Of a stretch of 64,000 nucleotides of DNA, positions 7,846 through 21,479 are shown piece after piece (position 1 is the stretch's first letter; every line of letters begins with the position of its first letter). The notes beneath the pieces were generated by a model. That model searched no databases and was not told where the DNA came from. It saw only the letters and a program-made list of their open reading frames with translations. Made by a program: the position numbers and the translations under genes. Origin of the DNA: Candidatus Kapaibacterium sp. (GTDB lineage: Bacteria; Bacteroidota; Ignavibacteria; Kapaibacteriales; UBA2268); the NCBI GenBank assembly GCA_963664875.1, contig OY761611.1, positions 1,248,001 to 1,312,000 of the forward strand. Direction: 5' to 3'.

Positions 7846-7873
7846 AAAGCTGCCCGAAAAAATCCGAGCAGCC
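7846..7873. terminator. Putative terminator between ptsI and the rhodanese gene
   Basis: GCTGCCCG...CGAGCAGC imperfect stem with an adjacent A-run (U-tract on the minus strand). Confidence 0.5.
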
Positions 7874-7904
7874 TATAAAAACTTAATATCATAAAGTAAT
7901 GAGC

Positions 7905-8918
7905 TTATTCAGTTACTTTGGGATATTCATAAGATTCTTTAGATTCATCCCAAACAGTAAGTTTACCTGCAACCATTTTGTCGTAAATCATTGCATTTGC
8001 ACCATAAAGAAGTGATTTTGCATTATAACCTAATACCTGAAGGTATGCTGCTATATAAGCACTTGTTTGGCCAGTGTAGCAATAAACAACAACTTCTTTA
8101 TCTGTAGGTAATGTTTTCAAATCGTTGGAGAACATCAAGCTTTCGCCCGGTGTATATTGAATAGCACCTGCAACGTGTCCCGGATCAGTATAATGTGCCA
8201 ATGACCAATAATTTACGATATAGTATTTTGACAAATCAAGGTATAGATTAGCATTCGTAATTTTGGCAACATCGAAGCCTGCAGCTAAAGCAGCTTCTAC
8301 TCTTGCTCTAAGAATTTCAGGACCGGTTTTTTTGCCTGTATTCAAAGTAGGAAGTTTGCCTGCAGCAGCTTTTGGAGTTTCTGTGCTTGTGAAATCTTCG
8401 GCTCTTGAGTTTCCGATGTTTTTGTTCCAAACGTTAACTGCATTTTCTTTATTCCAAGAAGACATACCCCATTTCAAAGAAGAAACTTTTGTGTGTCCCA
8501 TCATTCTCAATAAGGATGCACCATAAGCAGCAGTTTGACCTGAGTAACATACAATTACGATATCAGTATATTGTGATTCGTCTAAGCCTTCAACATGTGT
8601 AAGAAGATTTGCCAACGTTACATTATGTGCACCTTCAATGTGACCGCTTTTGAAGTCAGCTTCATTTCTGATGTCAATTAAATATTGTTTGCCGGGATTT
8701 GTTGACATATCTGTATAAAGAGCTGAAGCACCTTTTACTACCGGGAACTTCAAATTGAGAGTTTCGAGATACTCTGCCAATACCTGTGACTCATTGATAG
8801 TAACAGGATTAGTAGGTGTATCTTCGTCATCATCACTACAAGCTGTGAATGACAAACCTAATGCTAATAACATTAGCATAAATAGGTAATTAGAACGTTT
8901 TAGCATTTCTTTAAACAT
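7905..8918 (-). CDS. Tandem rhodanese-domain lipoprotein (sulfurtransferase-like)
   Basis: Lipobox FTAC; two rhodanese domains (LIDIR..GHIEGA..VCYSGQTA and GHVAGA..VYCYTGQTS); GGAGG RBS. Confidence 0.88.
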   Translation of the reverse strand: MFKEMLKRSNYLFMLMLLALGLSFTACSDDDEDTPTNPVTINESQVLAEYLETLNLKFPVVKGASALYTDMSTNPGKQYLIDIRNEADFKSGHIEGAHNVTLANLLTHVEGLDESQYTDIVIVCYSGQTAAYGASLLRMMGHTKVSSLKWGMSSWNKENAVNVWNKNIGNSRAEDFTSTETPKAAAGKLPTLNTGKKTGPEILRARVEAALAAGFDVAKITNANLYLDLSKYYIVNYWSLAHYTDPGHVAGAIQYTPGESLMFSNDLKTLPTDKEVVVYCYTGQTSAYIAAYLQVLGYNAKSLLYGANAMIYDKMVAGKLTVWDESKESYEYPKVTE

Positions 8919-8960
8919 AGGACCTCCTAAAAGAAAATATATAAAAATATTTGAAAATTA

Positions 8961-10316
8961 CTATTTAACACCCCACGAAGCAGGCAATTTATCATCAACG
9001 GCAACGTGTTCGGTTGATTTCAATTCCCAATCTTCTTTCAAATCAGATTTGAACAAATACAAATCTTTGTTTCTGAGGCTGTCGCCTTCTTTTATAATAT
9101 GGCACGCATCATAACATGGTTTACCATCAGCAGGTGAACACTGTGCTGTTACTGTTCTGATATTATGAGGCGATGTATAATTATAAATTGGGAAAGCATC
9201 AAAATTAGCAAGTTTAGATTCACCATATTCTTTCCAGCTGTCAGGAGCCATAAGACTTCTTCTTACTAGAACCATTTTGCCCGGTCTGACATCTTGAATC
9301 GGATTGACACCTATTTTGTAGTCAAGATATGAAGGAACTCTTGCACCTTCACCATGAATGTGGCAGCTTCCGCAATTGTTATATGGTTGCGAGTGGCAAA
9401 CATAACAATTCAAATCATTGATATGCATCGAATGGTATTTATTTGCCTTTTCGAGACTACCATGGCAATCTGTACACTGAGGCAAATTAGGATCGTTGTA
9501 ACGGGTTTCATATTTGTTGCCGTCGCCGTGCATTTCTTGAGTGCCATGACATGCAAGACAATCAAATTTCATTTTTTCGAAGTGGATATCAACTTTTGTT
9601 CCCGGTGCCATTCCAAGATATGCGTGACCGCCTCGGCTTGAGTGACAAGCAACACAAGTATTAGTCATATCCGGTTTTCTGACGAAATTGTGTCCGTCTA
9701 TCAAACCGCCACCACCGGCAGGTGGTCTATTTATGTGACATTCGCCGCAGGTACCGTGGCATCTGGCACAGTTGAAATCATAACCGTGTTTCAGGTCATC
9801 AGGAAGCTGGTCAAACTCATGAGAGCCTGCAAGCCCGTATCTTGTTGTTACTTTTCTTTTTTGTCCCCACCCATTAACATGGATGCTGGTTAGAGCATTG
9901 TGCGATTTTGTAGGGTGGCACTCAGCACACTTATCCATAGCAACGTGTGAAGGAGCGCTAATAAAGTCACCAGAGTGAGCTTTAACCTTGTCATTTGTGC
10001 CTTCAACACCATTATGGCAATAAGTACAACCAAGTTTGTAGTGCTTAGATTGTTTGAATTTTTGATAACCCGAACCTCCAAGATAAACTCTGTCATAAGG
10101 TTCGATATGAACAACATCGCCGCTACAACCTCCTGCAACCTCTCCGGTATCAGGTGAATACACTGCTTTTAGCAATTCATAGTCTGCGTGGCAGCTTTCG
10201 CAGGTGCTGAGCACTTCAGTTTTGTCGATTGGTGTAGTATCTTCGTCATCGCTACAAGCTGAAATGACAGAAAGAGATACACTAATCAGTAATAAGAATA
10301 ATAGCCTTTTTTTCAT
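8961..10316 (-). CDS. Multiheme c-type cytochrome lipoprotein (10 CxxCH + 1 CxxxCH) with a non-heme GGCSG motif
   Basis: Lipobox ISAC; heme motifs counted manually; start MKKRL follows a GGAG RBS. Confidence 0.9.
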   Translation of the reverse strand: MKKRLLFLLLISVSLSVISACSDDEDTTPIDKTEVLSTCESCHADYELLKAVYSPDTGEVAGGCSGDVVHIEPYDRVYLGGSGYQKFKQSKHYKLGCTYCHNGVEGTNDKVKAHSGDFISAPSHVAMDKCAECHPTKSHNALTSIHVNGWGQKRKVTTRYGLAGSHEFDQLPDDLKHGYDFNCARCHGTCGECHINRPPAGGGGLIDGHNFVRKPDMTNTCVACHSSRGGHAYLGMAPGTKVDIHFEKMKFDCLACHGTQEMHGDGNKYETRYNDPNLPQCTDCHGSLEKANKYHSMHINDLNCYVCHSQPYNNCGSCHIHGEGARVPSYLDYKIGVNPIQDVRPGKMVLVRRSLMAPDSWKEYGESKLANFDAFPIYNYTSPHNIRTVTAQCSPADGKPCYDACHIIKEGDSLRNKDLYLFKSDLKEDWELKSTEHVAVDDKLPASWGVK

Positions 10317-10347
10317 GGCGTACTCCAATATATATTACCCATGTGAA

Positions 10348-12456
10348 TTATTTCGGGTTATGACAATCTGAGCAATATTGATTCAAAATATCTTTATCCA
10401 AACCGCCAGGGTGAATAAATGTGTTTGCATTTAAACTATCCGCCAAAGGTTTTCCGGCAACAAGTTTGGTAGTAATAGTATGGCATAAATTGCAATCATT
10501 GCTCAAAACCTCTCCTGCTTTATTCACGTGATTACCGTCATGGCATCTGAAACACCCTTTGCTGTATAGGTGCGATTCGTGATTAGCATAAACTTTCCAA
10601 TTTGCATTCATCTCAGGGAAATAGTTTTTGAGGTAAATTGCATTCAATTCAATTATAGCCAGATTTAATTCATCTCGCATATCTATAGGAACGTTTGGAT
10701 AATTCTCTTTATAATATTTAGTCAAAGCATTTTTGATTTCCTCAATCGAATTTTCTCTTGATTTCAAAGATTCTAATACTCTAACGCCAATTTTTTTGAT
10801 ATTCGGCAATTTTGAATTTATTTTGTCATAAGCCATATAGGCATTTATTGTCTGATATGGGTCGTTATAAACATGCGACGGCCTATTGTGGCAGTCTATA
10901 CAGTCAAATTTCTTAAATTGAGCAGTTGGTGATATTTGCTTGCCTGTCAATCTATAGACTGTTTCTTTTCCGTCAGTTTTTGATATAGCTTTTACTAAAG
11001 GAATCGCATCATCCGGGTTATCTGGTTCGATATAAAGAATATCTTTGCTTATTCCCATGTGATAGTGAATGCCGGAACTGATACCGATTTCTCTGTTACC
11101 ACCACCTACTTTCATAGTTAGTGTGATACTATAGTGAGTATTTTCTTCGTCAGAGAGGAAATAATCACGCTTGAAAGATTTTTGTTCGTAATATTTTTCT
11201 TCCCAGTGGCATTTTTTACATGCTTCGGGAGACGGTCTCAAATATGTTGTAGGAGCTCCTAATGGCTTTTCATAACTGTCAGTAATGGTCATATATACCT
11301 GTGGCAAGCCGCTAAGTCTGTTTTGATCCCAAAACGAACTTTTTTCAGTGAAGTGGCAATCCACACATGCAATCTTAGAGTGCGGAGAAGATGCGTAAGT
11401 AACACTCACGGGTTCCATAACTTCGTGGCAGGCTTCCATACAAAAGCTGTTAGATTCTGTATATTCGTAGGCTTTCCTGCTACCGTAAATAGTAGTAATA
11501 ACAATAGTAAATGACACAACAGAAATGAGAAAGAAAAATAGCTGATGTTTTGCTCTGTTAAAGTCTAACAGAGGCAATCTGCGTTCTATATTTTTTTGTT
11601 TGTTTCTGTTTTCGTTTAGCCAACCAATCAGGATTACTATCAATCCCAAGAATAGAACCGAAGGAATGATAATGTAAGTAATCAGCCTTGTATAAGGATT
11701 GTTTGTCCCTACTAAAAACTCAAAAATTAAGAGTAGAACTATAAACACTAAGCTGAGCATAGTAATAAATGCACCGGATAGGGAGATTGGATTAGTAAGT
11801 AAGCTTGGTAATTTATCTTCATGTTCTTCTTCGTGATGATCTTCGTGTACTACGTGATAACCTGTAAACATAGCTATAAAGTGTTCGGAAGGAGTATTAC
11901 CTGTCGTTGCAAGATAGATATGAACAAACATAAATATCGTTAGGAAAAATCCCATTACAGTGTGTAGCATTGCCATAGGCCATACACCACCCATTCCGAA
12001 TATCTCATCAGGAGCCAGCTCCGGAAACATTAGAAACCAACCGGAAGCAATAATTACAGGAAATCCTATAAATACTATAAAGAAATAAGCCATCTGCTGC
12101 ATAGGATTAAACTTTTCTTTTTCACTAGCATGATAAGGATGCGGTTCGCCGAGGAAAATACCAAAAGTGTAAAACCTTGCCTGCTTTATAGAGCGAGTAA
12201 TAAAATTTCTCAAAGATGGCAAATAGTGCTTTATATTGCCGGAACTTATGTTTAAGATAAAATAAAAAAGATATAGAAAAGATAAGGCTATACCAGAAGT
12301 ATTGTGAGCAATCATAGCCACTTCGAAAGAAAAAAGAAAATCTCCGCTGCCGGCATAGTGCAAACTCATACCTGAAACGATAAGCACTACAAAGATTAGT
12401 GCGTTTAGCCAATGCCAAAGTCTGAGCCAAATCGGATATAAATATAACTTTTTCAT
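10348..12456 (-). CDS. Fusion of cytochrome b (CbcB/PhsC-like) with an ImcH-like NapC/NirT heptaheme cytochrome c
   Basis: N-terminal RLWHWLNA..H..KFNPMQQ..H..VHIYL diheme b domain; His-rich linker; 3 TM helices, then FCMEACHEVM..SPHSKIACVDCH and 5 more CxxCH. Confidence 0.85.
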   Translation of the reverse strand: MKKLYLYPIWLRLWHWLNALIFVVLIVSGMSLHYAGSGDFLFSFEVAMIAHNTSGIALSFLYLFYFILNISSGNIKHYLPSLRNFITRSIKQARFYTFGIFLGEPHPYHASEKEKFNPMQQMAYFFIVFIGFPVIIASGWFLMFPELAPDEIFGMGGVWPMAMLHTVMGFFLTIFMFVHIYLATTGNTPSEHFIAMFTGYHVVHEDHHEEEHEDKLPSLLTNPISLSGAFITMLSLVFIVLLLIFEFLVGTNNPYTRLITYIIIPSVLFLGLIVILIGWLNENRNKQKNIERRLPLLDFNRAKHQLFFFLISVVSFTIVITTIYGSRKAYEYTESNSFCMEACHEVMEPVSVTYASSPHSKIACVDCHFTEKSSFWDQNRLSGLPQVYMTITDSYEKPLGAPTTYLRPSPEACKKCHWEEKYYEQKSFKRDYFLSDEENTHYSITLTMKVGGGNREIGISSGIHYHMGISKDILYIEPDNPDDAIPLVKAISKTDGKETVYRLTGKQISPTAQFKKFDCIDCHNRPSHVYNDPYQTINAYMAYDKINSKLPNIKKIGVRVLESLKSRENSIEEIKNALTKYYKENYPNVPIDMRDELNLAIIELNAIYLKNYFPEMNANWKVYANHESHLYSKGCFRCHDGNHVNKAGEVLSNDCNLCHTITTKLVAGKPLADSLNANTFIHPGGLDKDILNQYCSDCHNPK

Positions 12457-12457
12457 C

Positions 12458-13897
12458 TTATTTTCTTCCTGAACGTTTGAAATACCATCTTAAAAAGCTG
12501 TGAAGAACCAAAAATACAGCAGTAATGCTTAGAAGCATAATAAAGCCGGTATCTAAGATTGCATTCCTTGTGGTCCCTACAACATAAGCGTCGCTTAAAA
12601 TTGTACCGTTTATAAAACCAAATTTTTCTCTTGATTTTTCTTTTTCGTGTTTATATAGCTTTGTCATCAATATTGAATTTTTTGAGTGACACTCTTCGCA
12701 CTTTTGTACAGTTTTTTCAGGGGGTAAAATGTCGTGAGACATGTGCGGTTGCGAAAAAGATGAGTGACAGTCTGTGCATCTGACAGTCTCCCAGTGTATG
12801 GACATTTTAGGGAGCCATTCGTGAGCTTCCTGCACTGTACTTACATCATATTTATCCATCATTGCTTTGTCAACGTGGCAGACCACACAATACACCATCT
12901 GATTTTCGATAAATGTTGTTTTATTTATATGATTAGCAGTGAAAACAGATGCCTTGATGTCCGGAATTTTTGCTATATCATGTTCACCATGGCAAAATGT
13001 ACAAGCCGGCGAATCCGGATTGCCTTTAGCGAGTGCTTTGCCGTGTATGCTCATTTCATATTCGTGAGCAACTGAGATATGGCATTTACCACATACTTTA
13101 GATATTTTTGACTTATGAACTGTCGAATTTGGAGAAGAAGATTTTTGCAAATCATGAGTACCGTGGCAATCAATACATGTAGCTGCATTTTGATTGCCTG
13201 ACATCAACTGGCTACCATGCACACTTTTTTCGTAATTCACTAAGGATTTTGAGTGTGATGTCTGATTTTCTGACTTGATATGGCAGCTGATGCAAAGCTT
13301 TTCCTGATTGATTTTCAGCTGCAAAGCATTTTTTTCACTTGCAGGCGTAATAGCACTTCTGTGGCACGAAATACATGTCGGAGACCTATGACTGTTTTCA
13401 ACAAATTTGTGCTCACTGGTATTATGCAATTTTACCACATCTTCATGGCAAGCACCACAGTAAGCTACAGATTTGGAAGCATGCATTGGTGATTCTTCAG
13501 ATTTTGGACTAACAACCTGATGAGTCCCGTGACAAGCCTTGCAATCATTTAGCTTAGCATAATCTTTGTGATTTTTATTTTGCATAGCCGCATGAAAAAG
13601 ATGTTTTTTAGCAGCATCTGTATGGCATGATGCACAATCGATTGGCTTTATATTTTCAGCATGCGGGACATCCTCTGCATTGAAGCCTTTGTGGCAATCA
13701 ACACATTTTAACTTACTATGCGGAGAATTAGCCAAATCAGCAGCTTTCACATAAAGCGAAATCTCTTTGCCATTTTTCTCCATAGAAATGTCTTTATCCG
13801 AGTGACATTCCATACATAGTTCTTCAGCAGAAGCAGATAGTCCCAAGCCGACAACTAAAATCAGGGCTGTAAACATCAGGAGAAAATAATTTTTCAT
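12458..13897 (-). CDS. 13-heme c-type cytochrome with C-terminal membrane anchor (CbcA-like)
   Basis: Signal peptide; 13 CxxCH; C-terminal YVVGTTRN..TM helix..H..LR; stop codon 1 nt before the cytochrome b gene; ORF track start 13909. Confidence 0.88.
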   Translation of the reverse strand: MKNYFLLMFTALILVVGLGLSASAEELCMECHSDKDISMEKNGKEISLYVKAADLANSPHSKLKCVDCHKGFNAEDVPHAENIKPIDCASCHTDAAKKHLFHAAMQNKNHKDYAKLNDCKACHGTHQVVSPKSEESPMHASKSVAYCGACHEDVVKLHNTSEHKFVENSHRSPTCISCHRSAITPASEKNALQLKINQEKLCISCHIKSENQTSHSKSLVNYEKSVHGSQLMSGNQNAATCIDCHGTHDLQKSSSPNSTVHKSKISKVCGKCHISVAHEYEMSIHGKALAKGNPDSPACTFCHGEHDIAKIPDIKASVFTANHINKTTFIENQMVYCVVCHVDKAMMDKYDVSTVQEAHEWLPKMSIHWETVRCTDCHSSFSQPHMSHDILPPEKTVQKCEECHSKNSILMTKLYKHEKEKSREKFGFINGTILSDAYVVGTTRNAILDTGFIMLLSITAVFLVLHSFLRWYFKRSGRK

Positions 13898-13909
13898 GAC
13901 ATCATCCAT

Positions 13910-14364
13910 CGGATATAATTAAATATGAAGATAAGATATACAACTTGTAAAAATCCTACAATTATATCTTTGTAATTTTGATAAAATAAGCCCCCTTAAA
14001 TATATTTTTAGTTTTACCTAATAGAAATAAATTGCTACATATCAATATATTGAAATATAAGACTCTTTAAGTCCGATATAAAGGGCTTTAAAGAATTATT
14101 TTATTGGTATATAGTTGCCTCATACACTTTTAGTCTTGCCTAATAATTATCCGAAATATAACATGAGAAATTTTCAATTGCAGATAAAATTTTCTCAAAA
14201 TTTCTTATTTATATTTCGTATATTAAAATAGGATAGATTATATTGTGTTATGCTCTTACTGCTAATAGGCCATCAACGTCCTTATTATTTATAGAGCTTA
14301 ATAGAGGAATCTTTCCAAGATACAAATTGGTAATACAATTTTTATAATAACACAGGAGGTATTT
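13910..14364. promoter_or_regulatory. AT-rich divergent promoter region of the cytochrome island
   Basis: Non-coding gap between divergent operons; contains palindromes TTGTA-N7-TACAA (13945-13961) and TGAGAAA-N20-TTTCTCA (14164-14197). Confidence 0.55.
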
Positions 14365-14958
14365 ATGAAATTGAAAAAAGTGATTTTCGGATTTATCGCT
14401 GTTGCCACCATGGCAGGTGTTGTTTCTACAATATCGCTAACTTCGGTAACAAGCAAAGAAAGCCCTAAGTACATCGGTGCAGACAAATGTAAAATGTGCC
14501 ACAAAGGCGAAAAAAAAGGTGACCAGTTTAAAATATGGTCAGAAGGTGCACACGCAAAAGCTTATGCTACTTTGGCAAGTGCAGAATCTAAAGCTATCGC
14601 TGCAAAAATGGGAATAGCTGACCCTCAAAAAGCTCCTGAGTGTTTGAAATGCCACGTAACAGCCTACAATGTAGATGCTTCTCTCAAAGAAAAAACATTG
14701 AAATTAGAAGAAGGTGTTTCGTGCGAATCTTGCCACGGTCCCGGTTCTGAGTATAAAAATATGACTGTGATGAAAGACATTAGTTTAGGTAAAATCGATG
14801 GTGCTGACTTAGGCTTCAAACAGCAAACTGCAGAACTTTGCAAGCAGTGCCACAACGAAGAATCACCTACATACAAAGAATTCAAATTTGAAGAAAGAGT
14901 TAAAGAAATTGCACATCCGATGCCGGATGCTTATAAAAAGGAAAAAGGATATAAATAA
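14365..14958 (+). CDS. Tetraheme c-type cytochrome (cytochrome c554-like)
   Basis: YIGADKCKMCH..W..GAHAKAY..CLKCH..EGVSCESCHGPGS..CKQCH; N-terminal signal/anchor; AGGAGG RBS. Confidence 0.9.
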   Translation: MKLKKVIFGFIAVATMAGVVSTISLTSVTSKESPKYIGADKCKMCHKGEKKGDQFKIWSEGAHAKAYATLASAESKAIAAKMGIADPQKAPECLKCHVTAYNVDASLKEKTLKLEEGVSCESCHGPGSEYKNMTVMKDISLGKIDGADLGFKQQTAELCKQCHNEESPTYKEFKFEERVKEIAHPMPDAYKKEKGYK

Positions 14959-15016
14959 GATATTGATTGTATGAAGCAATCATACTTTTTTTCCATAACT
15001 ATTTTTGGAGGTCATA

Positions 15017-16033
15017 GTGAAAAAAACTATCCAAATGCTTTCGATGCTACTTGTGCTGGTAGTATTGGGAGGAATGTTCTCAGCTTGCGAAGGTCCGGAA
15101 GGTCCGGAAGGTCCGGCTGGGAAAACAGGACAAAATGCTCTTGCAACATGTGACAATTGTCACGACGTTAGTACTGATTTGAAAGCAAGAATGCTTCAGT
15201 ACGCAAAATCTACTCACGCGTTAGGTGGTAACTTCGAAAGAAGTACTGCTGATTGTGCTCCATGTCACACTCACGAAGGTTTCGTAAATGTATTAGCAAC
15301 CGGCGAAACTGGTGATATTAGTAATCCAACTCCTCCGGGTTGCCGTACTTGTCATAATATTCATACTACTTATACAGTAGATGATTATGCATTGACTGCT
15401 ACAGCTCCTGTAGAATTAGCGGTGGGTAGCAAAACATTCGACAAAGGTAAAAGTAATTTGTGTGCAAATTGCCACCAATCACGTCCTTTCACTTTGCCTG
15501 AATTCAATGATTCAGAATTTTCTATCACAAGTTCTAGATTTGGTCCTCACCATGGTCCTCAATCTAATTTAATTATGGCTGCCGGTTTAGTTGAAATCCC
15601 TGGCAACGCATCATATCCATCTACAAACCCACATGCGGGTACTGGTGATGGTTGCGTTGATTGCCACATGGCAAATGCTTACGGCACTCAGGCAGGTGGA
15701 CATACAATGTCTGTTGCTTATGATTACCATGGAACAATTGAACCAAATACTGCTGGCTGTATTTCTTGTCACACTGACGAAACAGAACTTATTACTAAAC
15801 TTGAAGACTACAAAACAGAAATGGATGGTTTAATGACTCAAATTTCTGAAATATTAGTAGAAAAAGGTCTTTTGACTGCTACAGGAAGTGCAGTAGCAGG
15901 CAAAACAACAGGTAAATTAGCTTCTGCTCTTCTTAACTATAGAACTATAGCAATAGAAGATAGATCTTATGGTGTTCACAATCCGAAATATGTAAGAGCT
16001 CTACTCAAAAACACATTAGAGTCTCTACAGTAA
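15017..16033 (+). CDS. Hexaheme c-type cytochrome lipoprotein with collagen-like tether
   Basis: GTG start after GGAGG; lipobox FSAC; (Gly-X-Y)5 segment GPEGPEGPAGKTGQN; 6 CxxCH; C-terminal DRSYGVHNPKY. Confidence 0.88.
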   Translation: MKKTIQMLSMLLVLVVLGGMFSACEGPEGPEGPAGKTGQNALATCDNCHDVSTDLKARMLQYAKSTHALGGNFERSTADCAPCHTHEGFVNVLATGETGDISNPTPPGCRTCHNIHTTYTVDDYALTATAPVELAVGSKTFDKGKSNLCANCHQSRPFTLPEFNDSEFSITSSRFGPHHGPQSNLIMAAGLVEIPGNASYPSTNPHAGTGDGCVDCHMANAYGTQAGGHTMSVAYDYHGTIEPNTAGCISCHTDETELITKLEDYKTEMDGLMTQISEILVEKGLLTATGSAVAGKTTGKLASALLNYRTIAIEDRSYGVHNPKYVRALLKNTLESLQ

Positions 16034-16038
16034 CATAA

Positions 16039-16112
16039 ATGGTCTGCCCTCCGCTGCTAAGCCTAAAGGAGCACTTAGGCTTAGCACCCGGGGCAGTACC
16101 ATATTTTTTTTT
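16039..16112 (+). terminator. Long intra-operon stem-loop / intrinsic terminator
   Basis: Perfect 12-bp stem TGCTAAGCCTAA/TTAGGCTTAGCA with outer CTGCCC/GGGCAG and ATGGT/ACCAT pairing, followed by a T9 run. Confidence 0.75.
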
Positions 16113-16130
16113 ATTCAGGAGCAAGCTATT

Positions 16131-17345
16131 ATGAGGAAATACTTATTACTCTTATGTTTTTTTACGGTAGCATATTTTGCTCAGGCAGATTTAACTTACA
16201 AAGCAAAAGTTACTTCCGGGCTTTTCTCAGGAGCTCAATTTTACAATAGAGAAAACCTCGAAGACAGATTGCTTAATCCTAACGAAGATGCTTACAGATG
16301 GTACAACCGTATAGCACTACAAAGCACTTATGACAGATTTTCTGTTAACTTTAATGCTATTCGTAGTGATTATCTTGACTTTGACGGAGTCAAACCTTAC
16401 TTCCCTCGAAATGAAATTAACGAAACTAAAATGTATCAGGCTTATGCTCAGTATAAGTTCGATGACGGTAATATCAAATTAGGTAGAGTAATGCCGTTTT
16501 CAAGATGGTATTTTAGCTCTGTCGATGGCGGTTCTTTTGATTATCAGGTCAATTCCAATTTTTCTGTAAGTGCTTTTGCAGGTAGTGATGTAGATTACGG
16601 TCTTTTTGTTGATGATGACAACAGAAAAGCCGTTGGCTACACAGAAATTGCCTATCGCGAGCAAAATTATGGCGGTAAAGTAAAATACTTGTACGCTAAC
16701 GAAGAATCTAAACTTGGAACTGATTTGTTTTTTAGAACAGATAAGCATCGTGTAGCTGCAAACATTGGTTATGATGCGACTAACTCTCGCCTATTTGATG
16801 CAGGTTTAGGATATTTTGCTTACTTAACACCTGAGCTTAATGTTTCTGCTAATTACTTACGTACAATTCCTATCAGCTGGAGCTATAAATTCTATTCCGA
16901 ATATATAGACAGAGTTCAGATTGGAATCAGCTATGATTTAGGTAAAAACTATACAGTATCTTTAAAACAGATGCTTGGTCTTGCTGATGGTAATTCAAAC
17001 TATTTGACTTATCTCTATCTCACTCATAAATACTTTTATGTAGGTTTAAATTATTTATCAGGCGATATGGAAGCAGAACGCTTAGCTATCACTTGTGGCG
17101 GACAGTATTCCCCTATGGATAACTTAATGCTTCAAGCCGGTATAGCTTCTGTAGATCATATGTTTGATAATTTTTACTATAAAGACGAACAAACATATTC
17201 TTCGTACTTCAAAGTAAGATACAAAGCACTGGACTATTTAAACCTTGCTGCCTACGCAAACTACTACCACCAAAATTCTATGTTTGATAACAAATGGCGT
17301 GGCGGTCTGACTGCCCAACTTATACTCGCAGGAGGTGGGAAATGA
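16131..17345 (+). CDS. Putative outer-membrane beta-barrel (porin of a porin-cytochrome conduit)
   Basis: Signal peptide (AQA); Tyr/Phe/Gly-rich alternating amphipathic strands; no heme motifs; flanked by multiheme cytochromes. Confidence 0.72.
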   Translation: MRKYLLLLCFFTVAYFAQADLTYKAKVTSGLFSGAQFYNRENLEDRLLNPNEDAYRWYNRIALQSTYDRFSVNFNAIRSDYLDFDGVKPYFPRNEINETKMYQAYAQYKFDDGNIKLGRVMPFSRWYFSSVDGGSFDYQVNSNFSVSAFAGSDVDYGLFVDDDNRKAVGYTEIAYREQNYGGKVKYLYANEESKLGTDLFFRTDKHRVAANIGYDATNSRLFDAGLGYFAYLTPELNVSANYLRTIPISWSYKFYSEYIDRVQIGISYDLGKNYTVSLKQMLGLADGNSNYLTYLYLTHKYFYVGLNYLSGDMEAERLAITCGGQYSPMDNLMLQAGIASVDHMFDNFYYKDEQTYSSYFKVRYKALDYLNLAAYANYYHQNSMFDNKWRGGLTAQLILAGGGK

Positions 17346-18241
17346 AAATTTTTCAGATAATCATTAGCTCAGTCGCTCTGCTATCTGTGGTACTTATGGG
17401 CATATATAGCTCAAACATGACTGCTGACGATACAGTAAAAAGCTGGGAGTCGGATTTGATTTTTTCTCATGCAAAACATGTGATTGAAAACGAACTCGCC
17501 TGCGAAACTTGCCATGCTGATGCTGCAAATTCGGAAACAGGTAATGACGATTTGCTTCCTAAGGAAGAAACTTGTATCACTTGCCATGAGAAAACTGAAG
17601 AATCTTGTGTGATGTGTCATACTAATCCGAAAAATCCAAAAATCATGCCTCGGATTACTGACTATTCTCAAAAGTTTAGCCATAAACAACACATAGACAA
17701 AGGTGCTGACTGTAACTCATGCCATACTGATATTGCTAAAAAAGACAAGGTTGCTAAACCTAACTTACCTGATATGCACAAATGTATGACTTGCCACGAA
17801 ACTCCGGAAGAAACTAAAGAATGTTATATCTGTCATGATCAGGATTATAATCTAATTCCAAAAGATCATACTGAAATGTGGCTCGATAATCACTCTAATT
17901 TTGTGGAAGCGGAAGGCAACAAATGCCAAACTTGCCATCAGGAACAGTATTGTATGGATTGCCATAGAGGCGAAAACCTCTTTAACAATTCTCACCCTCC
18001 TCATTTTATGGCTACTCACTCTATGAGCTATCTAATGAGAGAGTCTAACTGCCAATCATGCCACGAAGGTCTGGAATCTTGTAGAGAATGCCACATGGAA
18101 ATAAACTATGTCATTCCTCCTGATCATATGCCATCTACCTGGATCGGCGAACATATGTTCTCCGGAAAAATCAATGCTGATAAGTGCGTTGTTTGTCACA
18201 GGAAAGATGAGCCTCGTTGTATGGATTGTCATACTAAATAA
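17342..18241 (+). CDS. Dodecaheme c-type cytochrome (cytochrome c3/c7-like repeats)
   Basis: 12 CxxCH with FSH..H motifs; ATGA overlap with the porin stop; hydrophobic N-terminus; ORF track start 17294. Confidence 0.9.
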   Translation: MKIFQIIISSVALLSVVLMGIYSSNMTADDTVKSWESDLIFSHAKHVIENELACETCHADAANSETGNDDLLPKEETCITCHEKTEESCVMCHTNPKNPKIMPRITDYSQKFSHKQHIDKGADCNSCHTDIAKKDKVAKPNLPDMHKCMTCHETPEETKECYICHDQDYNLIPKDHTEMWLDNHSNFVEAEGNKCQTCHQEQYCMDCHRGENLFNNSHPPHFMATHSMSYLMRESNCQSCHEGLESCRECHMEINYVIPPDHMPSTWIGEHMFSGKINADKCVVCHRKDEPRCMDCHTK

Positions 18242-18367: not shown

Positions 18368-18769
18368 CTATCCCTTGATATGAATTAGTGCTTTTCTTAG
18401 CGTATCAGGGAGATTTACTGCCCGCCGATCAGTATTACTTAAACAGATATGATTGGTACGTGCGATTACTGCAATAGAGTCTTTGCTGTAAACCTGATAT
18501 TCAAGTTTATATTTGAAATCACTGATTTCAATGCAGAAAATGCGTATAATGATATCATCTCCTGCGTAAAGCGGGGCTTTGTAAGATGCTTCCGTATGCA
18601 AAATCGGTAAGATAACCCCTGAGCTATCCAAAATAGATGTAATAGGAAAATCAGCAGTTTCTAAAAAATACTCATAAGCCCTATGGATTATGTTAAAAAT
18701 CTTTGCATAAAACATGACACCGGCGGCATCAGTATCTTCGAAGAAAATCTTAGTTCTGTGTTCAAACAT
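18368..18769 (-). CDS. Acyl-CoA thioesterase (4HBT family; DHNA-CoA hydrolase-like)
   Basis: DTDAAGVMFYA..H.AYE hot-dog fold motif; TAATG overlap with the upstream gene. Confidence 0.8.
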   Translation of the reverse strand: MFEHRTKIFFEDTDAAGVMFYAKIFNIIHRAYEYFLETADFPITSILDSSGVILPILHTEASYKAPLYAGDDIIIRIFCIEISDFKYKLEYQVYSKDSIAVIARTNHICLSNTDRRAVNLPDTLRKALIHIKG

Positions 18770-20436
18770 TATATCACCTTTACTCCAATTAGTGTTATAT
18801 CGTCAAATTGTTGTGTTCCAATTGCAAATTGCTGGACATCCTCGACAATAATTTTGAGCATTTCTTCAACAGGGAATTTCCGAATATCCCGAACCAATTC
18901 CTGAAGCCTTTCATCTCCATATTCAAGATTAGAAGTATTGAGTGCTTCGGTAATTCCGTCTGTAAACATGCAAATCACAGAATCTTGTTCTAATTTGACT
19001 ACCGCCTGCTCATATTCGAAAGGGTCGTCCATAAAGCCCAAAATCAAACCACCTGCGGTTAGATGCTCTATATGCAAATCTGAATGTAGAATGAACGGCG
19101 GATTGTGTCCGGCGTTGATGTACTCAAAAGTTTTGTGCTCAGAATCTAATATACCCATGAAAAAGGTAACAAATTTATCTGAGGAAGTATTCAAATAAAC
19201 GATTTTGTTGAGACGTTGTACTATTTCTCTAAGAGGAAGCCCCAAAGGAGCAATAACTCTAAGTGCAGCCTGAACATTAGCCATCAGCAATGCGGCAGGC
19301 ATACCTTTTCCGGAAACGTCAGCAATGGCAACAATAGTTCGATTCTCATCCAGCTTAATAAAATCGTAATAGTCGCCACCTACATGTCTTGACGGCAAAC
19401 TTATGCCATGTATTTCAAAATATTTTACATTTGGTACATTTTTAGGTAATAAATTTTTCTGAATATCGAGAGCCAGATTAAGTTCGTTCTCTAATTTTTT
19501 CTTTTCTATTTCCTCTTTAAATAACCTCTCAGACTCTAAAGTGGAAATTGCTGTATTGCCAAGGGCTTCTATAAATTGTAGGTTTTCGTCAGTGAACTCA
19601 CTACCATTCATTTTTTTTCCAATAACAAGCAGTGCTTTGGGATTTCCCTGAATGAACATAGGAGCTATGACATTGATATTATATTTTTTGCAATATTCAG
19701 TGAAATTTTCTCCGAAATTGGAATTATTGCAGACAACCGGCTCCTTTATTCTTGTCATTCTATTCAAAAATGAAATATCTTCCAGCTCTTCAAATCTATT
19801 GATATAAGCATCTTCAATCTTATTGTTTTCGATTTGGAAAATGGCAAATCTATTTACCATTAGTTGTCCCATCAGATGAAAAGACAGCATTTTTATTATT
19901 TCTTTTTTCGACAAAAGGTTGCTAAAATCGCGGGACATTTCAAACAGCGTAGTCAAAAGCTGATTTCTTTGTTCGATTGTAATCTTCTCTTGAATAAGAG
20001 ATTGCTGATGTTCCGCATTTTGAAGTGCATTGGCAGATATAGTGCAGACAAGTCTTGCATATTTTTCTTCTTCCCCGGATAGTTCGGTACCTAAAAGTCT
20101 ATCGCCCAAGCATATAAAAGCAAAGATTTTTTCACGATATTCCACAGGAAAAACAAATCGGATATTATACTGCTCTAAAGTAGTACGAAGGGTGGAATAA
20201 TCCCCCATACATTTTTCAATGTCAAACTCTAAGTAATCTGGAGTAAATTTCCCTTTGCTCAGGTATAATTTTAGTCCTTTGTTGTTTGGCACAAGCACCC
20301 CTGCCCTCAGCACTTTGAGTTTTCCCATAAGCGAGAGCAAAGTAGAATTTAAGATAAATTCTTTGCTGTGGGTTTCGTTGAGCCTGGCACTCAGTTCGAG
20401 TAAAGATTCAAGATTTATAATTACATTATGTTGCAT
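18769..20436 (-). CDS. GAF-domain PP2C/SpoIIE phosphatase (RsbU-like)
   Basis: IQKNLLP, VGGDYYD, ADVSGKG, NAGHNPP, FTDGITEA and DDIT motifs. Confidence 0.92.
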   Translation of the reverse strand: MQHNVIINLESLLELSARLNETHSKEFILNSTLLSLMGKLKVLRAGVLVPNNKGLKLYLSKGKFTPDYLEFDIEKCMGDYSTLRTTLEQYNIRFVFPVEYREKIFAFICLGDRLLGTELSGEEEKYARLVCTISANALQNAEHQQSLIQEKITIEQRNQLLTTLFEMSRDFSNLLSKKEIIKMLSFHLMGQLMVNRFAIFQIENNKIEDAYINRFEELEDISFLNRMTRIKEPVVCNNSNFGENFTEYCKKYNINVIAPMFIQGNPKALLVIGKKMNGSEFTDENLQFIEALGNTAISTLESERLFKEEIEKKKLENELNLALDIQKNLLPKNVPNVKYFEIHGISLPSRHVGGDYYDFIKLDENRTIVAIADVSGKGMPAALLMANVQAALRVIAPLGLPLREIVQRLNKIVYLNTSSDKFVTFFMGILDSEHKTFEYINAGHNPPFILHSDLHIEHLTAGGLILGFMDDPFEYEQAVVKLEQDSVICMFTDGITEALNTSNLEYGDERLQELVRDIRKFPVEEMLKIIVEDVQQFAIGTQQFDDITLIGVKVI

Positions 20437-20450
20437 ATAGGTACGTACAT

Positions 20451-21479
20451 CTAATCATTAAGTGGGTAAATATAGTCAATATTACGGTCAAATTCTAAAA
20501 CAGTTGCTATCTTCTGTGTTTTTAAATCTAATAAATGGATGGTTCTGTTTTGCCCGTTTTCCAAAGGCAAAATCCCTTCGCCTTTATAGGTATCCCAAAG
20601 CATAGATTTATAATCCAATGCACTGATAATAGCAATGCTATTGGAAAACTTCAAATTGTAGCGAAAAATACCATCGTTAGTAGAAATGATAGCAAAAGAC
20701 AAATCCGTAATCAATAAACCGTTCGGAATTTGCTTATCGGCAGTAAGTTGATTGCGTTCGATATTTATAGTTTCTACATTTGAGAACTTTTCTCTTTCGT
20801 AAATACTTAATTTCGCAGCACCGACAGATGCTTTATCAAATTTGCCGCTACCGGCACAAGCAACAATTAAGTAATCTTTATCATCGAAATATTCAATGCA
20901 TACAGGTGCATTTTCTGTCTTTTTCTCGCCAATCTTAACATCTGTTCTTGTATCATAGATATCGATTCTGTTTGCTATAGTGTTGCAGACATACAAATTG
21001 GTACCGTAGTAGTTCATATCAAAAGCAGACTCGCTTTCTTCTATAGTTTTTACGAACTTATTATTTGCAATGTCAAATACAGCAATCTTGCCTGACAGAC
21101 CTGAAGAAATATAAGCAGAACTTGCATTAGGGAAAACAATATCCGAATGTCTGTCAAACGTGCTTTCAAGATTAGCATCTGCAACTATTTGCTTAGTTTC
21201 GTTGTTTAAGACAAGTAATCTGCCTGATTGGGTCACAACATAAGACTTATCGAAAAAAGAGCGGACACAGACGACAGAATCTCCGGAAGTAAGCATTTCT
21301 GAGTCATTGTAGTCTATCGTGAGCCAATTTTTTTTATTTGCATCGTATATTGACAAATTGCTGCTACCAGCTTCATATACTAAATAATTCCTTTCGCGTT
21401 GTGGCGCCGGAATAACATTATCATCTACAGTGCAGGAGTATATCATAAAAGCCGAAATTACAAGCAAGATATATTTCAT
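20451..21479 (-). CDS. YncE-like beta-propeller lipoprotein
   Basis: Lipobox IYSC; repeated beta-blade patterns (AYIS..KIAVFD, LYVCN..IDIYD). Confidence 0.55.
   Translation of the reverse strand: MKYILLVISAFMIYSCTVDDNVIPAPQRERNYLVYEAGSSNLSIYDANKKNWLTIDYNDSEMLTSGDSVVCVRSFFDKSYVVTQSGRLLVLNNETKQIVADANLESTFDRHSDIVFPNASSAYISSGLSGKIAVFDIANNKFVKTIEESESAFDMNYYGTNLYVCNTIANRIDIYDTRTDVKIGEKKTENAPVCIEYFDDKDYLIVACAGSGKFDKASVGAAKLSIYEREKFSNVETINIERNQLTADKQIPNGLLITDLSFAIISTNDGIFRYNLKFSNSIAIISALDYKSMLWDTYKGEGILPLENGQNRTIHLLDLKTQKIATVLEFDRNIDYIYPLND

Follow-up and report, generated by a model that had tools for sequence, protein, structure and literature searches.

Does one compact gene cluster encode a complete route for electrons between the quinone pool and the cell surface in a little-studied bacterial lineage, the Kapabacteria? 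The question is raised by a block of eight open reading frames (ORFs), about 10.3 kb long, at positions 7905–18241 of the stretch of DNA analyzed here (the window), which comprises 64,000 nucleotides from Candidatus Kapaibacterium sp. (GenBank assembly GCA_963664875.1, contig OY761611.1, positions 1,248,001 to 1,312,000 of the forward strand). The source genome (G000) is a single contig of 3.83 Mb with 36% G+C. Extracellular electron transfer is known mainly from Geobacter and Shewanella, and predictions elsewhere rest on homology to a few porins. An earlier interpretation based on the letters of the window (the sequence-only reading) described the block as a self-contained island of about 53 hemes that supplies the whole path from the quinone pool to the cell surface. 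We conclude, with moderate confidence, that the block encodes a respiratory quinol-to-surface conduit made of three modules and a shuttle, with a terminus that handles sulfur or selenium.

An eight-gene block that moves as a unit

The block encodes six multiheme cytochromes, a tandem-rhodanese lipoprotein and a 404-aa barrel protein in two divergent arms. The leftward arm (minus strand) contains the genes for a 483-aa 13-heme cytochrome (12458–13909; 13 CXXCH motifs), a 702-aa fusion of a cytochrome b with a heptaheme part (10348–12456; six CXXCH and one CX3CH), a 455-aa 11-heme lipoprotein (8961–10328; ten CXXCH and one CX3CH) and a 337-aa double-rhodanese lipoprotein (7905–8918). The rightward arm (plus strand) contains those for a 197-aa tetraheme cytochrome (14365–14958; four CXXCH), a 342-aa hexaheme lipoprotein (15005–16033; six CXXCH), the barrel (16131–17345) and a dodecaheme cytochrome (17342–18241, 299 aa; 12 CXXCH, counted in a 315-aa frame). 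The sequences themselves show lipoboxes and signal peptides and, in the 483-aa protein, a C-terminal membrane helix. All eight ORFs lie where the sequence-only reading had placed them, and its estimate of about 53 hemes agrees with the 51 CXXCH and 2 conserved CX3CH motifs that we count. Fifteen frames of the source genome carry at least three CXXCH motifs (114 motifs), and six of these frames, with 51 motifs, are in the block. Cytochrome c maturation, expected by the same reading elsewhere in the genome, is represented by a 790-aa CcmF (PF16327 and PF01578) and a second PF01578 protein.

The eight genes are syntenic in all four of the other genomes of the genus (4/4 congeners), with 60–84% protein identity. 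In each congener the block is flanked by orthologues of genes found at ~259.7 kb and ~129.9 kb in the source genome, where the block itself lies at 1.256–1.266 Mb, between ptsI and a thioesterase gene. The flanks thus differ between the window genome and its congeners, and exactly these eight genes have therefore been relocated together as one unit. No terminal direct or inverted repeats were seen around the block (tRNA and integrase genes were not searched for); the repeats that turned up in the flank check were heme-motif codons and a shared lipobox region. The cluster is conserved as a unit, as had been anticipated, at a different chromosomal position. Its description as self-contained holds in that one locus has all the parts, but the block is a composite of three modules that exist apart in other genera: an inner-membrane pair (the 702-aa fusion and the 13-heme cytochrome), an outer-membrane trio (the hexaheme, the barrel and the dodecaheme) and a pair formed by the 11-heme lipoprotein and the rhodanese, which need not depend on the conduit.

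The inner-membrane pair and the outer-membrane trio

The 702-aa protein begins with a four-helix diheme cytochrome b, followed by three more membrane helices, a NapC/NirT/NrfH-like module and a c7/c3-like end. The b domain matches cytochrome b561 (PF01292, 82.8 bits, residues 7–199) and the NCBIfam model of PhsC (NF011582, E 2.7e-50; 171 bits, under the 204-bit equivalog cut-off), and its histidines 15, 51, 165 and 179 are invariant in 10/10 sequences. The NapC/NirT region passes marginally (PF03264, 24.3 bits with a cut-off of 24.1, residues 305–396) and is accompanied by a TIGR03153 match below the cut-off (E 9e-11) and by a match to the NrfH chain 2j7a_C (E 2e-5). The seven c-heme motifs, including the CX3CH, are kept in 9/9 full-length orthologues. 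We predict that the protein works as a quinol dehydrogenase or a quinone reductase. It is not a CbcL- or ImcH-like protein: with an N-terminal b domain and then the NapC/NirT-like module, it comes nearer to an arrangement of CbcB plus CbcA. CbcL orthology was rejected because the domain order is reversed, with the c hemes after the b domain. We also rejected a role of the PhsC-like b domain as the partner of a nearby Phs/Psr molybdoenzyme, since the source genome has only one weak molybdopterin-family frame.

Among 8000 candidates scored, 944 matched the 702-aa family. Full-length fusions occur in records from Kapaibacteria, Ignavibacteria, Chlorobiota and Bacteroidota, forms of ~500 aa without the b domain occur in Ignavibacteriaceae, and one genome (G021) encodes the b domain and the c part in two separate genes. 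In one congener (G004; L012/L020/L034) the orthologue has one TGA, one TAG and four TAA codons in the stretch matching residues 230–421 and is broken into frames of 283 and 287 aa, either as a pseudogene or through a long-read assembly error.

Besides a signal peptide, the 13-heme cytochrome has a C-terminal membrane helix with a histidine that all 11 of 11 sequences retain. Twelve of its motifs are present in 11/11 and the first in 10/11, the exception being an N-terminally short ORF call. Its gene adjoins that of a 702-aa homologue in all nine loci fetched from other genera, and some of these loci also encode a 19-heme protein that carries its b561 domain at the C-terminus (the CbcL order). 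Judged by these gene families, the 13-heme/702-aa pair with its cytochrome b::NapC-like fusion appears to be a family-wide inner-membrane module, and the fusion and its 13-heme partner could mark this type of respiration.

In loci L053–L057 (from G022, G015, G011 and G016) the pair belongs to a conserved six-gene cluster with a hexaheme-like lipoprotein, a 393–412-aa protein with one CXXCH (the 393-aa form has no Pfam or NCBIfam match), a Rieske protein with a TAT signal and a monoheme cytochrome c; it gives the impression of another respiratory cluster, likewise undescribed. The 393-aa protein, encoded after the hexaheme-like lipoprotein in these other genera, was considered as a second barrel, but comparison with the barrel alignment showed no relation (hhalign probability 0.2). 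A second module of similar logic lies in the source genome outside the window (G000:C1:6311-8525), where a 530-aa frame with eight CXXCH motifs directly precedes the gene for a stand-alone cytochrome b; the latter shares 34% identity with the b domain of the 702-aa fusion.

The tetraheme is of the c554 type (PF13435, 71.7 bits), has a signal peptide and no lipobox, and was found in the four congeners only. It scores 18.2 bits with the NCBIfam model of ExtS (NF040971), for which the cut-off is 100. We regard it as a candidate periplasmic shuttle.

The trio stands alone at two loci, L014 (in G012) and L022; at a third (L021, in G014) the barrel and dodecaheme genes follow what is left of the lipoprotein cytochrome gene where the short contig ends. 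The hexaheme lipoprotein has the lipobox FSAC and, after the lipid cysteine, a conserved Gly-Pro-rich (GXY-like) spacer; its six motifs are invariant in 10 sequences, and it has no CXXCK motif. Its C-terminal half gives a partial match to PF02335 (32.2 bits, above the cut-off, profile positions 237–370). The best Foldseek match of its AlphaFold2 model (pLDDT 65.8) is OcwA (6i5b_A; E 1.7e-3, TMq 0.51, 21% identity over 296 columns), and NrfA-type nitrite reductases follow. For the dodecaheme the likeliest start is 17342, in an ATGA overlap with the barrel stop, because distant orthologues align only from residue 13–20 of the 315-aa frame. It has an N-terminal signal or anchor helix and no lipobox, its 12 motifs are invariant in seven sequences, and in its N-terminal half it is similar to ActA, the pentaheme subunit of alternative complex III (8k9e_A, E 8.7e-12; also 6f0k_A and 6btm_A). 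By predicted localization the dodecaheme would be periplasmic and the hexaheme lipid-anchored, and the dodecaheme is a candidate for a wire inserted in the barrel.

The 404-aa protein, which has a signal peptide ending in AQA, had been proposed to be a β-barrel, and structure prediction agrees. An AlphaFold2 model built from a six-sequence alignment is all-beta with 22 strands (mean pLDDT 73.9, pTM 0.64), and comparison by Foldseek and VIA-align returned outer-membrane barrels exclusively. These include the FimD pore (Z 17.7), OprD/Occ channels (Z ~16–17), MtrB (6r2q_B, Z 13.7) and, with the plug left out, the 22-strand barrels of TonB-dependent transporters (Z 15–17.3 over 330–343 residues, root-mean-square deviation ~4.2 Å).

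In sequence the barrel has no Pfam or NCBIfam match. When it and its five relatives were scanned at E up to 10, no Pfam match had an E below 0.01, and the only rows were Hen1_N and YadA_anchor, both at chance level. A word-indexed search of 5.8 billion proteins recovered six proteins including the barrel itself, and an exhaustive profile search of 1.84 billion representative proteins recovered 19 relatives at E up to 0.001. Its relatives sit in records labeled Candidatus Kapaibacterium sp., Chlorobiota bacterium and Bacteroidetes/Chlorobi group bacterium ChocPot_Mid. Among 40 related genomes it was found in all four of the genus and in two other genera of the family, plus one 20-bit match at chance level, and it was found in none of 400 other genomes sampled across the phylum. 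The barrel thus appears to belong to no described family, the Geobacter porins OmbB, ExtB, ExtE and ExtI having been compared by description only; with 19 relatives found, any kinship to them would lie beyond the reach of HMMER. A search by features in the ESM Atlas gave, as leads only, unnamed Zixibacteria and Calditrichota clusters (score 0.98), one look-alike cluster being auto-named 'Porin family protein'. Surveys that screen with hidden Markov models (HMMs) built on MtrB, OmbB or Ext proteins would not see this barrel and so would undercount such conduits.

Fold matches to OprD/Occ and other substrate channels at similar scores also raise the possibility that the barrel does not sheathe a cytochrome and works instead as an ordinary diffusion porin or as a channel for a substrate such as polysulfide or selenite; the substrate would then enter and electrons would never cross the outer membrane. 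We consider this very improbable. The barrel gene is translationally coupled to the dodecaheme gene through the ATGA overlap, and the barrel was recovered solely beside dodecaheme and lipoprotein cytochrome genes, in the four congeners and at L014, L021 and L022. The lumen of a 22-strand barrel without its plug is, moreover, of the size that houses a plug of ~150 residues in TonB-dependent transporters. A precedent for the channel comes from Geobacter, where the porin-like ExtI is needed for selenite and tellurite reduction and a role of this sort has been proposed (PMC6148476).

Complex prediction bears on the same point. The barrel and the dodecaheme scored 0.58 (runs of 0.57, 0.60 and 0.58), with 0.00 for the best of three controls; the runs share at least 72% of their contacts, and the partner pLDDT is at least 70. 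Of 157 solved complexes, 116 reach the mark that the score passes, as do 2 of 215 mismatched pairs, yet scores at or below 0.60 take in just 18 of the 157 solved complexes and both of the mismatches that passed. Since MtrAB, a like complex, has been solved, the pass may also reflect mere likeness. The modeling thus weakly supports contact between barrel and dodecaheme, and to that extent it leaves the substrate channel some ground. We nevertheless favor the trio as a conduit for electrons.

The putative terminus and the case for a single path

The same 10 of 41 genomes proved to contain the genes for the 11-heme lipoprotein and the rhodanese, which lie side by side in every one of the 10. In the database the 11-heme protein is called as 451 aa, with M5 as its first residue (start 10316). 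At least 955 homologues, 52–61% identical, occur in Kapaibacteria, Ignavibacteria and Bacteroidales; they are named 'hypothetical' or, in many records from JGI, 'thiosulfate/3-mercaptopyruvate sulfurtransferase'; no name for this cytochrome was found in the literature searched. The CX3CH motif is retained in 16/16 aligned homologues. One invariant cysteine belongs to no heme motif but to a GGC(G/S)G loop, and there are 10 invariant non-motif histidines for 11 hemes, from which we infer either one unusually ligated heme or an active-site cysteine. The rhodanese matches PF00581 in two stretches (95.1 bits) with a catalytic-loop cysteine in both (CYSGQT and CYTGQT). The first-domain cysteine, Cys124, is present in 8/8 orthologues and the second-domain cysteine in 7/8, and the orthologue without the latter is a copy without a cytochrome partner. 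With both the fold and the active-site cysteine loop, the rhodanese is predicted to be catalytically competent.

Counted from the lipid cysteine, the rhodanese begins C-SDDDED and the 11-heme protein C-SDDEDT, which resembles the surface-export consensus of Bacteroides fragilis lipoproteins, SDDDD after the +1 cysteine (PMC5080379). The DNA encoding the lipobox and acidic region is itself similar in the two genes (window 8815–8845 and 10231–10261, 81% identity over 31 nt).

The pair is unusually conserved for one with a multiheme cytochrome, with more than 50% identity across classes and at least 955 homologues under generic names, and bacteria of the Bacteroidota group in wastewater, sediments and hot springs may commonly use it as a sulfur-redox enzyme. 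A bolder proposal, which we advance tentatively and hold to be doubtful, is that the 11-heme lipoprotein and the tandem rhodanese form a new surface-exposed, molybdenum-free sulfur/selenium oxidoreductase, widespread in Bacteroidota, Ignavibacteria and Kapabacteria and wired here to the quinone pool via the lineage-restricted barrel. Insoluble S0, polysulfide or thiosulfate would give up sulfane sulfur to the rhodanese, which would bind it as a cysteine persulfide, and the cytochrome would reduce or oxidize that persulfide at the unusually ligated heme, for which the invariant extra cysteine is a candidate ligand.

The combined evidence is consistent with the following scheme. At the inner membrane, the 702-aa protein and the 13-heme cytochrome would form a bc-type complex that exchanges electrons with the quinone pool, and the c554-type tetraheme would ferry electrons across the periplasm. 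At the outer membrane, the dodecaheme inside the 22-strand barrel would touch the hexaheme lipoprotein outside, in the manner of the Mtr, Pcc and Ext conduits. At the terminus, a dedicated redox pair would be formed by the 11-heme lipoprotein and the tandem rhodanese, the rhodanese cysteines holding sulfane sulfur (or selenium) species and the 11-heme cytochrome reducing or oxidizing them, and the hexaheme may additionally serve mineral or humic acceptors. What computation shows is which genes are present, their heme motifs and domain families, the predicted barrel, the conservation by modules and the joint relocation; contacts between the proteins, exposure at the surface, outward electron flow and the substrate are inferred. 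The sequence-only claim of a whole path supplied by one locus stands for the anatomy, with all parts in one locus, while a single continuous path is a proposal. A quinol-to-surface route in one movable 10.3-kb block would be a compact target for heterologous expression or deletion.

Several observations weigh against this scheme. In G011 and G021 the 11-heme/rhodanese pair forms a stand-alone unit with a MarR gene, with no barrel or inner-membrane pair in the ~19 kb fetched, and the barrel was not found in these genomes; the pair can therefore work without the conduit and may face the periplasm. The inner-membrane pair has quite different partners elsewhere (the 19-heme::cytochrome b protein; the Rieske protein and the monoheme cytochrome), so that its co-location in this genus could be opportunistic. 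The export consensus that is matched is that of B. fragilis and may not hold in Kapabacteria, the hexaheme model is of middling confidence with a top fold match at E 1.7e-3, and the barrel-dodecaheme prediction gives support that is no more than weak. The internal stop codons in the G004 copy of the 702-aa gene count on the same side, as do two features taken up below, a strong hairpin that separates the hexaheme gene from the barrel gene and a pair of heme-copper oxidases.

The hairpin lies at 16039–16113 (plus strand) and is followed by nine U. It folds at −38.3 kcal/mol (z −4.09; 0/200 shuffles as stable), and a hairpin occurs at the equivalent intergenic position in 6/6 other loci folded (L011, L012, L013, L016, L014 and L022), in most of them with a T-rich tail after the stem and in two distant genera with unrelated sequences. 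It is probably an attenuator, a partial terminator or an mRNA-stabilizing element. Conservation of its position and not of its sequence suggests regulated stoichiometry or separate transcripts in the rightward arm, which may be read as two plus two genes or be attenuated. Of the two four-gene operons first proposed, the divergent arms are thus confirmed, while the rightward arm is interrupted between its second and third genes.

These features lead to the view that there is no single path and that the three modules are merely clustered in this genus: the 11-heme/rhodanese pair would carry out periplasmic sulfur or selenium handling or detoxification (of thiosulfate, polysulfide, selenite or cyanide), the inner-membrane pair would be a general quinol:cytochrome c oxidoreductase, and the trio a separate small conduit. 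Every module is found by itself in other genera, the 11-heme/rhodanese pair has its own MarR regulator there and the inner-membrane pair has other partners, and the hairpin divides the right arm; the independence of the 11-heme/rhodanese pair in particular would fit a clustered, partly periplasmic arrangement. We judge this view decidedly unlikely, given that exactly these eight genes and no others are kept and relocated jointly in 4/4 congeners. In this genus, too, the MarR gene has been lost, and a single gene string contains the 11-heme/rhodanese pair right beside the inner-membrane pair. A genome of another genus, G014, has the 13-heme, 702-aa, MarR, 11-heme and rhodanese genes on one short contig (L061) and the trio on a second (L021), and so combines the left arm, including the rhodanese, with the trio.

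Within the favored quinol-to-surface scheme, the direction of flow is a further matter. The same conduit could take up electrons from extracellular Fe(II), from sulfide minerals or from reduced sulfur held by the rhodanese, and pass them to heme-copper oxidases and, with the 702-aa protein running in reverse, into the quinone pool. The source genome encodes two COX1-family heme-copper oxidases, which make inward flow equally feasible, and no dissimilatory sulfite reductase (NIR_SIR) domain was found in it; a link of the block to dissimilatory sulfite reduction was rejected on the latter ground. CbcL/MtoC- and CymA-type proteins occur in iron reducers and iron oxidizers alike, with no distinguishing sequence feature (PMC6295460), and one relative that has the trio and the left arm is ChocPot_Mid, Chocolate Pots being an iron-rich hot spring (PMC6137239). 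On the other side, 'mto-like' uptake systems are described there as being without an extracellular cytochrome (PMC6137239), whereas the block has two cytochrome lipoproteins, one of them with an export-signal-like motif, and the closest match of the hexaheme model, OcwA, is a terminal reductase. Sequence decides neither direction; we consider uptake unlikely and retain outward flow as the favored direction.

The two arms are separated by a 455-bp AT-rich intergenic region (13910–14364), presumably the control region for both. A scan for sigma-70 promoters was uninformative (38 sites against 37.7 expected), and there is no regulator gene within the block. A terminator-like hairpin (7847–7874, minus strand; a 12-bp stem and then a T-run) just 3' of the rhodanese gene is probably the end of the leftward transcription unit. 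A metatranscriptome run yielded three short contigs, 95–99% alike, on the hexaheme, dodecaheme and neighboring thioesterase genes, a weak hint of transcription given that DNA can occur in RNA libraries. Two sequencing runs contain the stretch in full and may be where it came from. A wastewater-metagenome run covers the stretch in 29/30 bins at 90–99% identity.

Two genes near the block lie outside the conserved unit. A 555-aa protein with a C-terminal SpoIIE/PP2C-type phosphatase domain (18769–20436, minus strand) adjoins the block in the window genome only and not in the four congeners. Two genes downstream of the block, a 342-aa lipoprotein (20451–21479, minus strand) has weak matches, far below the cut-offs, to the YncE seven-bladed β-propeller and to hydrazine synthase β.

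Comparison with known systems

We found no description of a porin-cytochrome cluster or of this locus in Kapabacteria in the literature searched, although supplementary gene tables may list homologues, and in that literature the locus has not been given another function, in line with the sequence-only reading. The passages of PMC7509429 that deal with Kapabacteria describe sulfate reduction and oxidases and no porin-cytochrome cluster. Geobacter-like pcc porins are already known from Ignavibacteria (PMC7399161; PMC6137239).

In general design the block is like the MtrCAB complex of Shewanella (6R2Q), in which a cytochrome passes through a barrel and a lipoprotein cytochrome lies outside. The likeness of the barrel model to MtrB (Z 13.7 over 306 residues) does not exceed that to barrels in general. 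Unlike the larger MtrB (target length 649), the barrel has 22 predicted strands. Pfam contains an MtrB/PioB model, which the barrel does not match at E up to 10. The predicted outside cytochrome is a small, possibly OcwA/NrfA-like hexaheme and not a decaheme of the MtrC type. OcwA, the outer cell-wall cytochrome of Thermincola potens (6I5B), is the best fold match of the hexaheme model, ahead of the NrfA types, and carries nine hemes; in contrast, the hexaheme lipoprotein has six hemes, a lipid anchor, a Gly-Pro-rich spacer and no CXXCK.

On the quinol side, CbcBA pairs a four-helix diheme b protein, which mostly bears the annotation 'thiosulfate reductase-like', with a heptaheme c partner, CbcA, which is anchored by a C-terminal helix that supplies a histidine, as in the small subunits of hydrogenases; CbcB-CbcA fusions are mentioned for Chloroflexi (Joshi et al., bioRxiv 10.1101/2021.04.15.440034). 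The block has the corresponding elements, a PhsC-like b domain, seven c hemes on the same chain and a histidine in the C-terminal helix of the partner, GSU0593/0594 having been compared by description. It differs from CbcBA in that the heptaheme part begins with the NapC/NirT/NrfH-like module (a marginal PF03264 match) and in that the anchored partner has 13 hemes and not 7. CbcL has N-terminal c hemes and a C-terminal six-helix HydC/FdnI-like b domain (PMC6295460), and this domain order, shared by MtrH and MtoC, is opposite to that of the 702-aa protein.

At the outer membrane, the Geobacter conduits OmaB-OmbB-OmcB, ExtABCD and ExtEFG combine an outer-membrane protein of ~18–21 predicted strands with lipoprotein cytochromes of 5–12 hemes; ExtA and ExtG are periplasmic dodecahemes, and ExtC and ExtF are pentaheme lipoproteins (PMC6148476). 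The block shares with them the trio of a periplasmic dodecaheme, a barrel and a small lipoprotein cytochrome. As in the Pcc and Ext architectures, every locus recovered has the barrel gene directly between the hexaheme and dodecaheme genes, with one periplasmic and one lipoprotein multiheme cytochrome by predicted localization. Unlike the Geobacter barrels, as these are described, that of the block belongs to a tiny lineage-restricted family, and unlike Geobacter the block encodes a quinol-side module and the 11-heme/rhodanese pair together with the conduit.

The closest parallel for the rhodanese is ExtHIJKL, which encodes a rhodanese-family lipoprotein (ExtH), the porin-like ExtI and the pentaheme ExtK, and in which the rhodanese partner varies among species (PMC6148476). 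In both systems a rhodanese lipoprotein is encoded with a barrel and multiheme cytochromes. In the block, unlike in ExtHIJKL, the rhodanese is a tandem protein with two active-site cysteines and is always paired with the 11-heme lipoprotein, a pairing that also exists without the barrel; and, unlike in the Ext operons linked to selenite and tellurite, the tetraheme falls far below the ExtS cut-off (18 against 100 bits). By architecture, the block is best likened to a conduit of the Pcc/Ext type with an ExtH-like rhodanese and a CbcBA-like quinol module.

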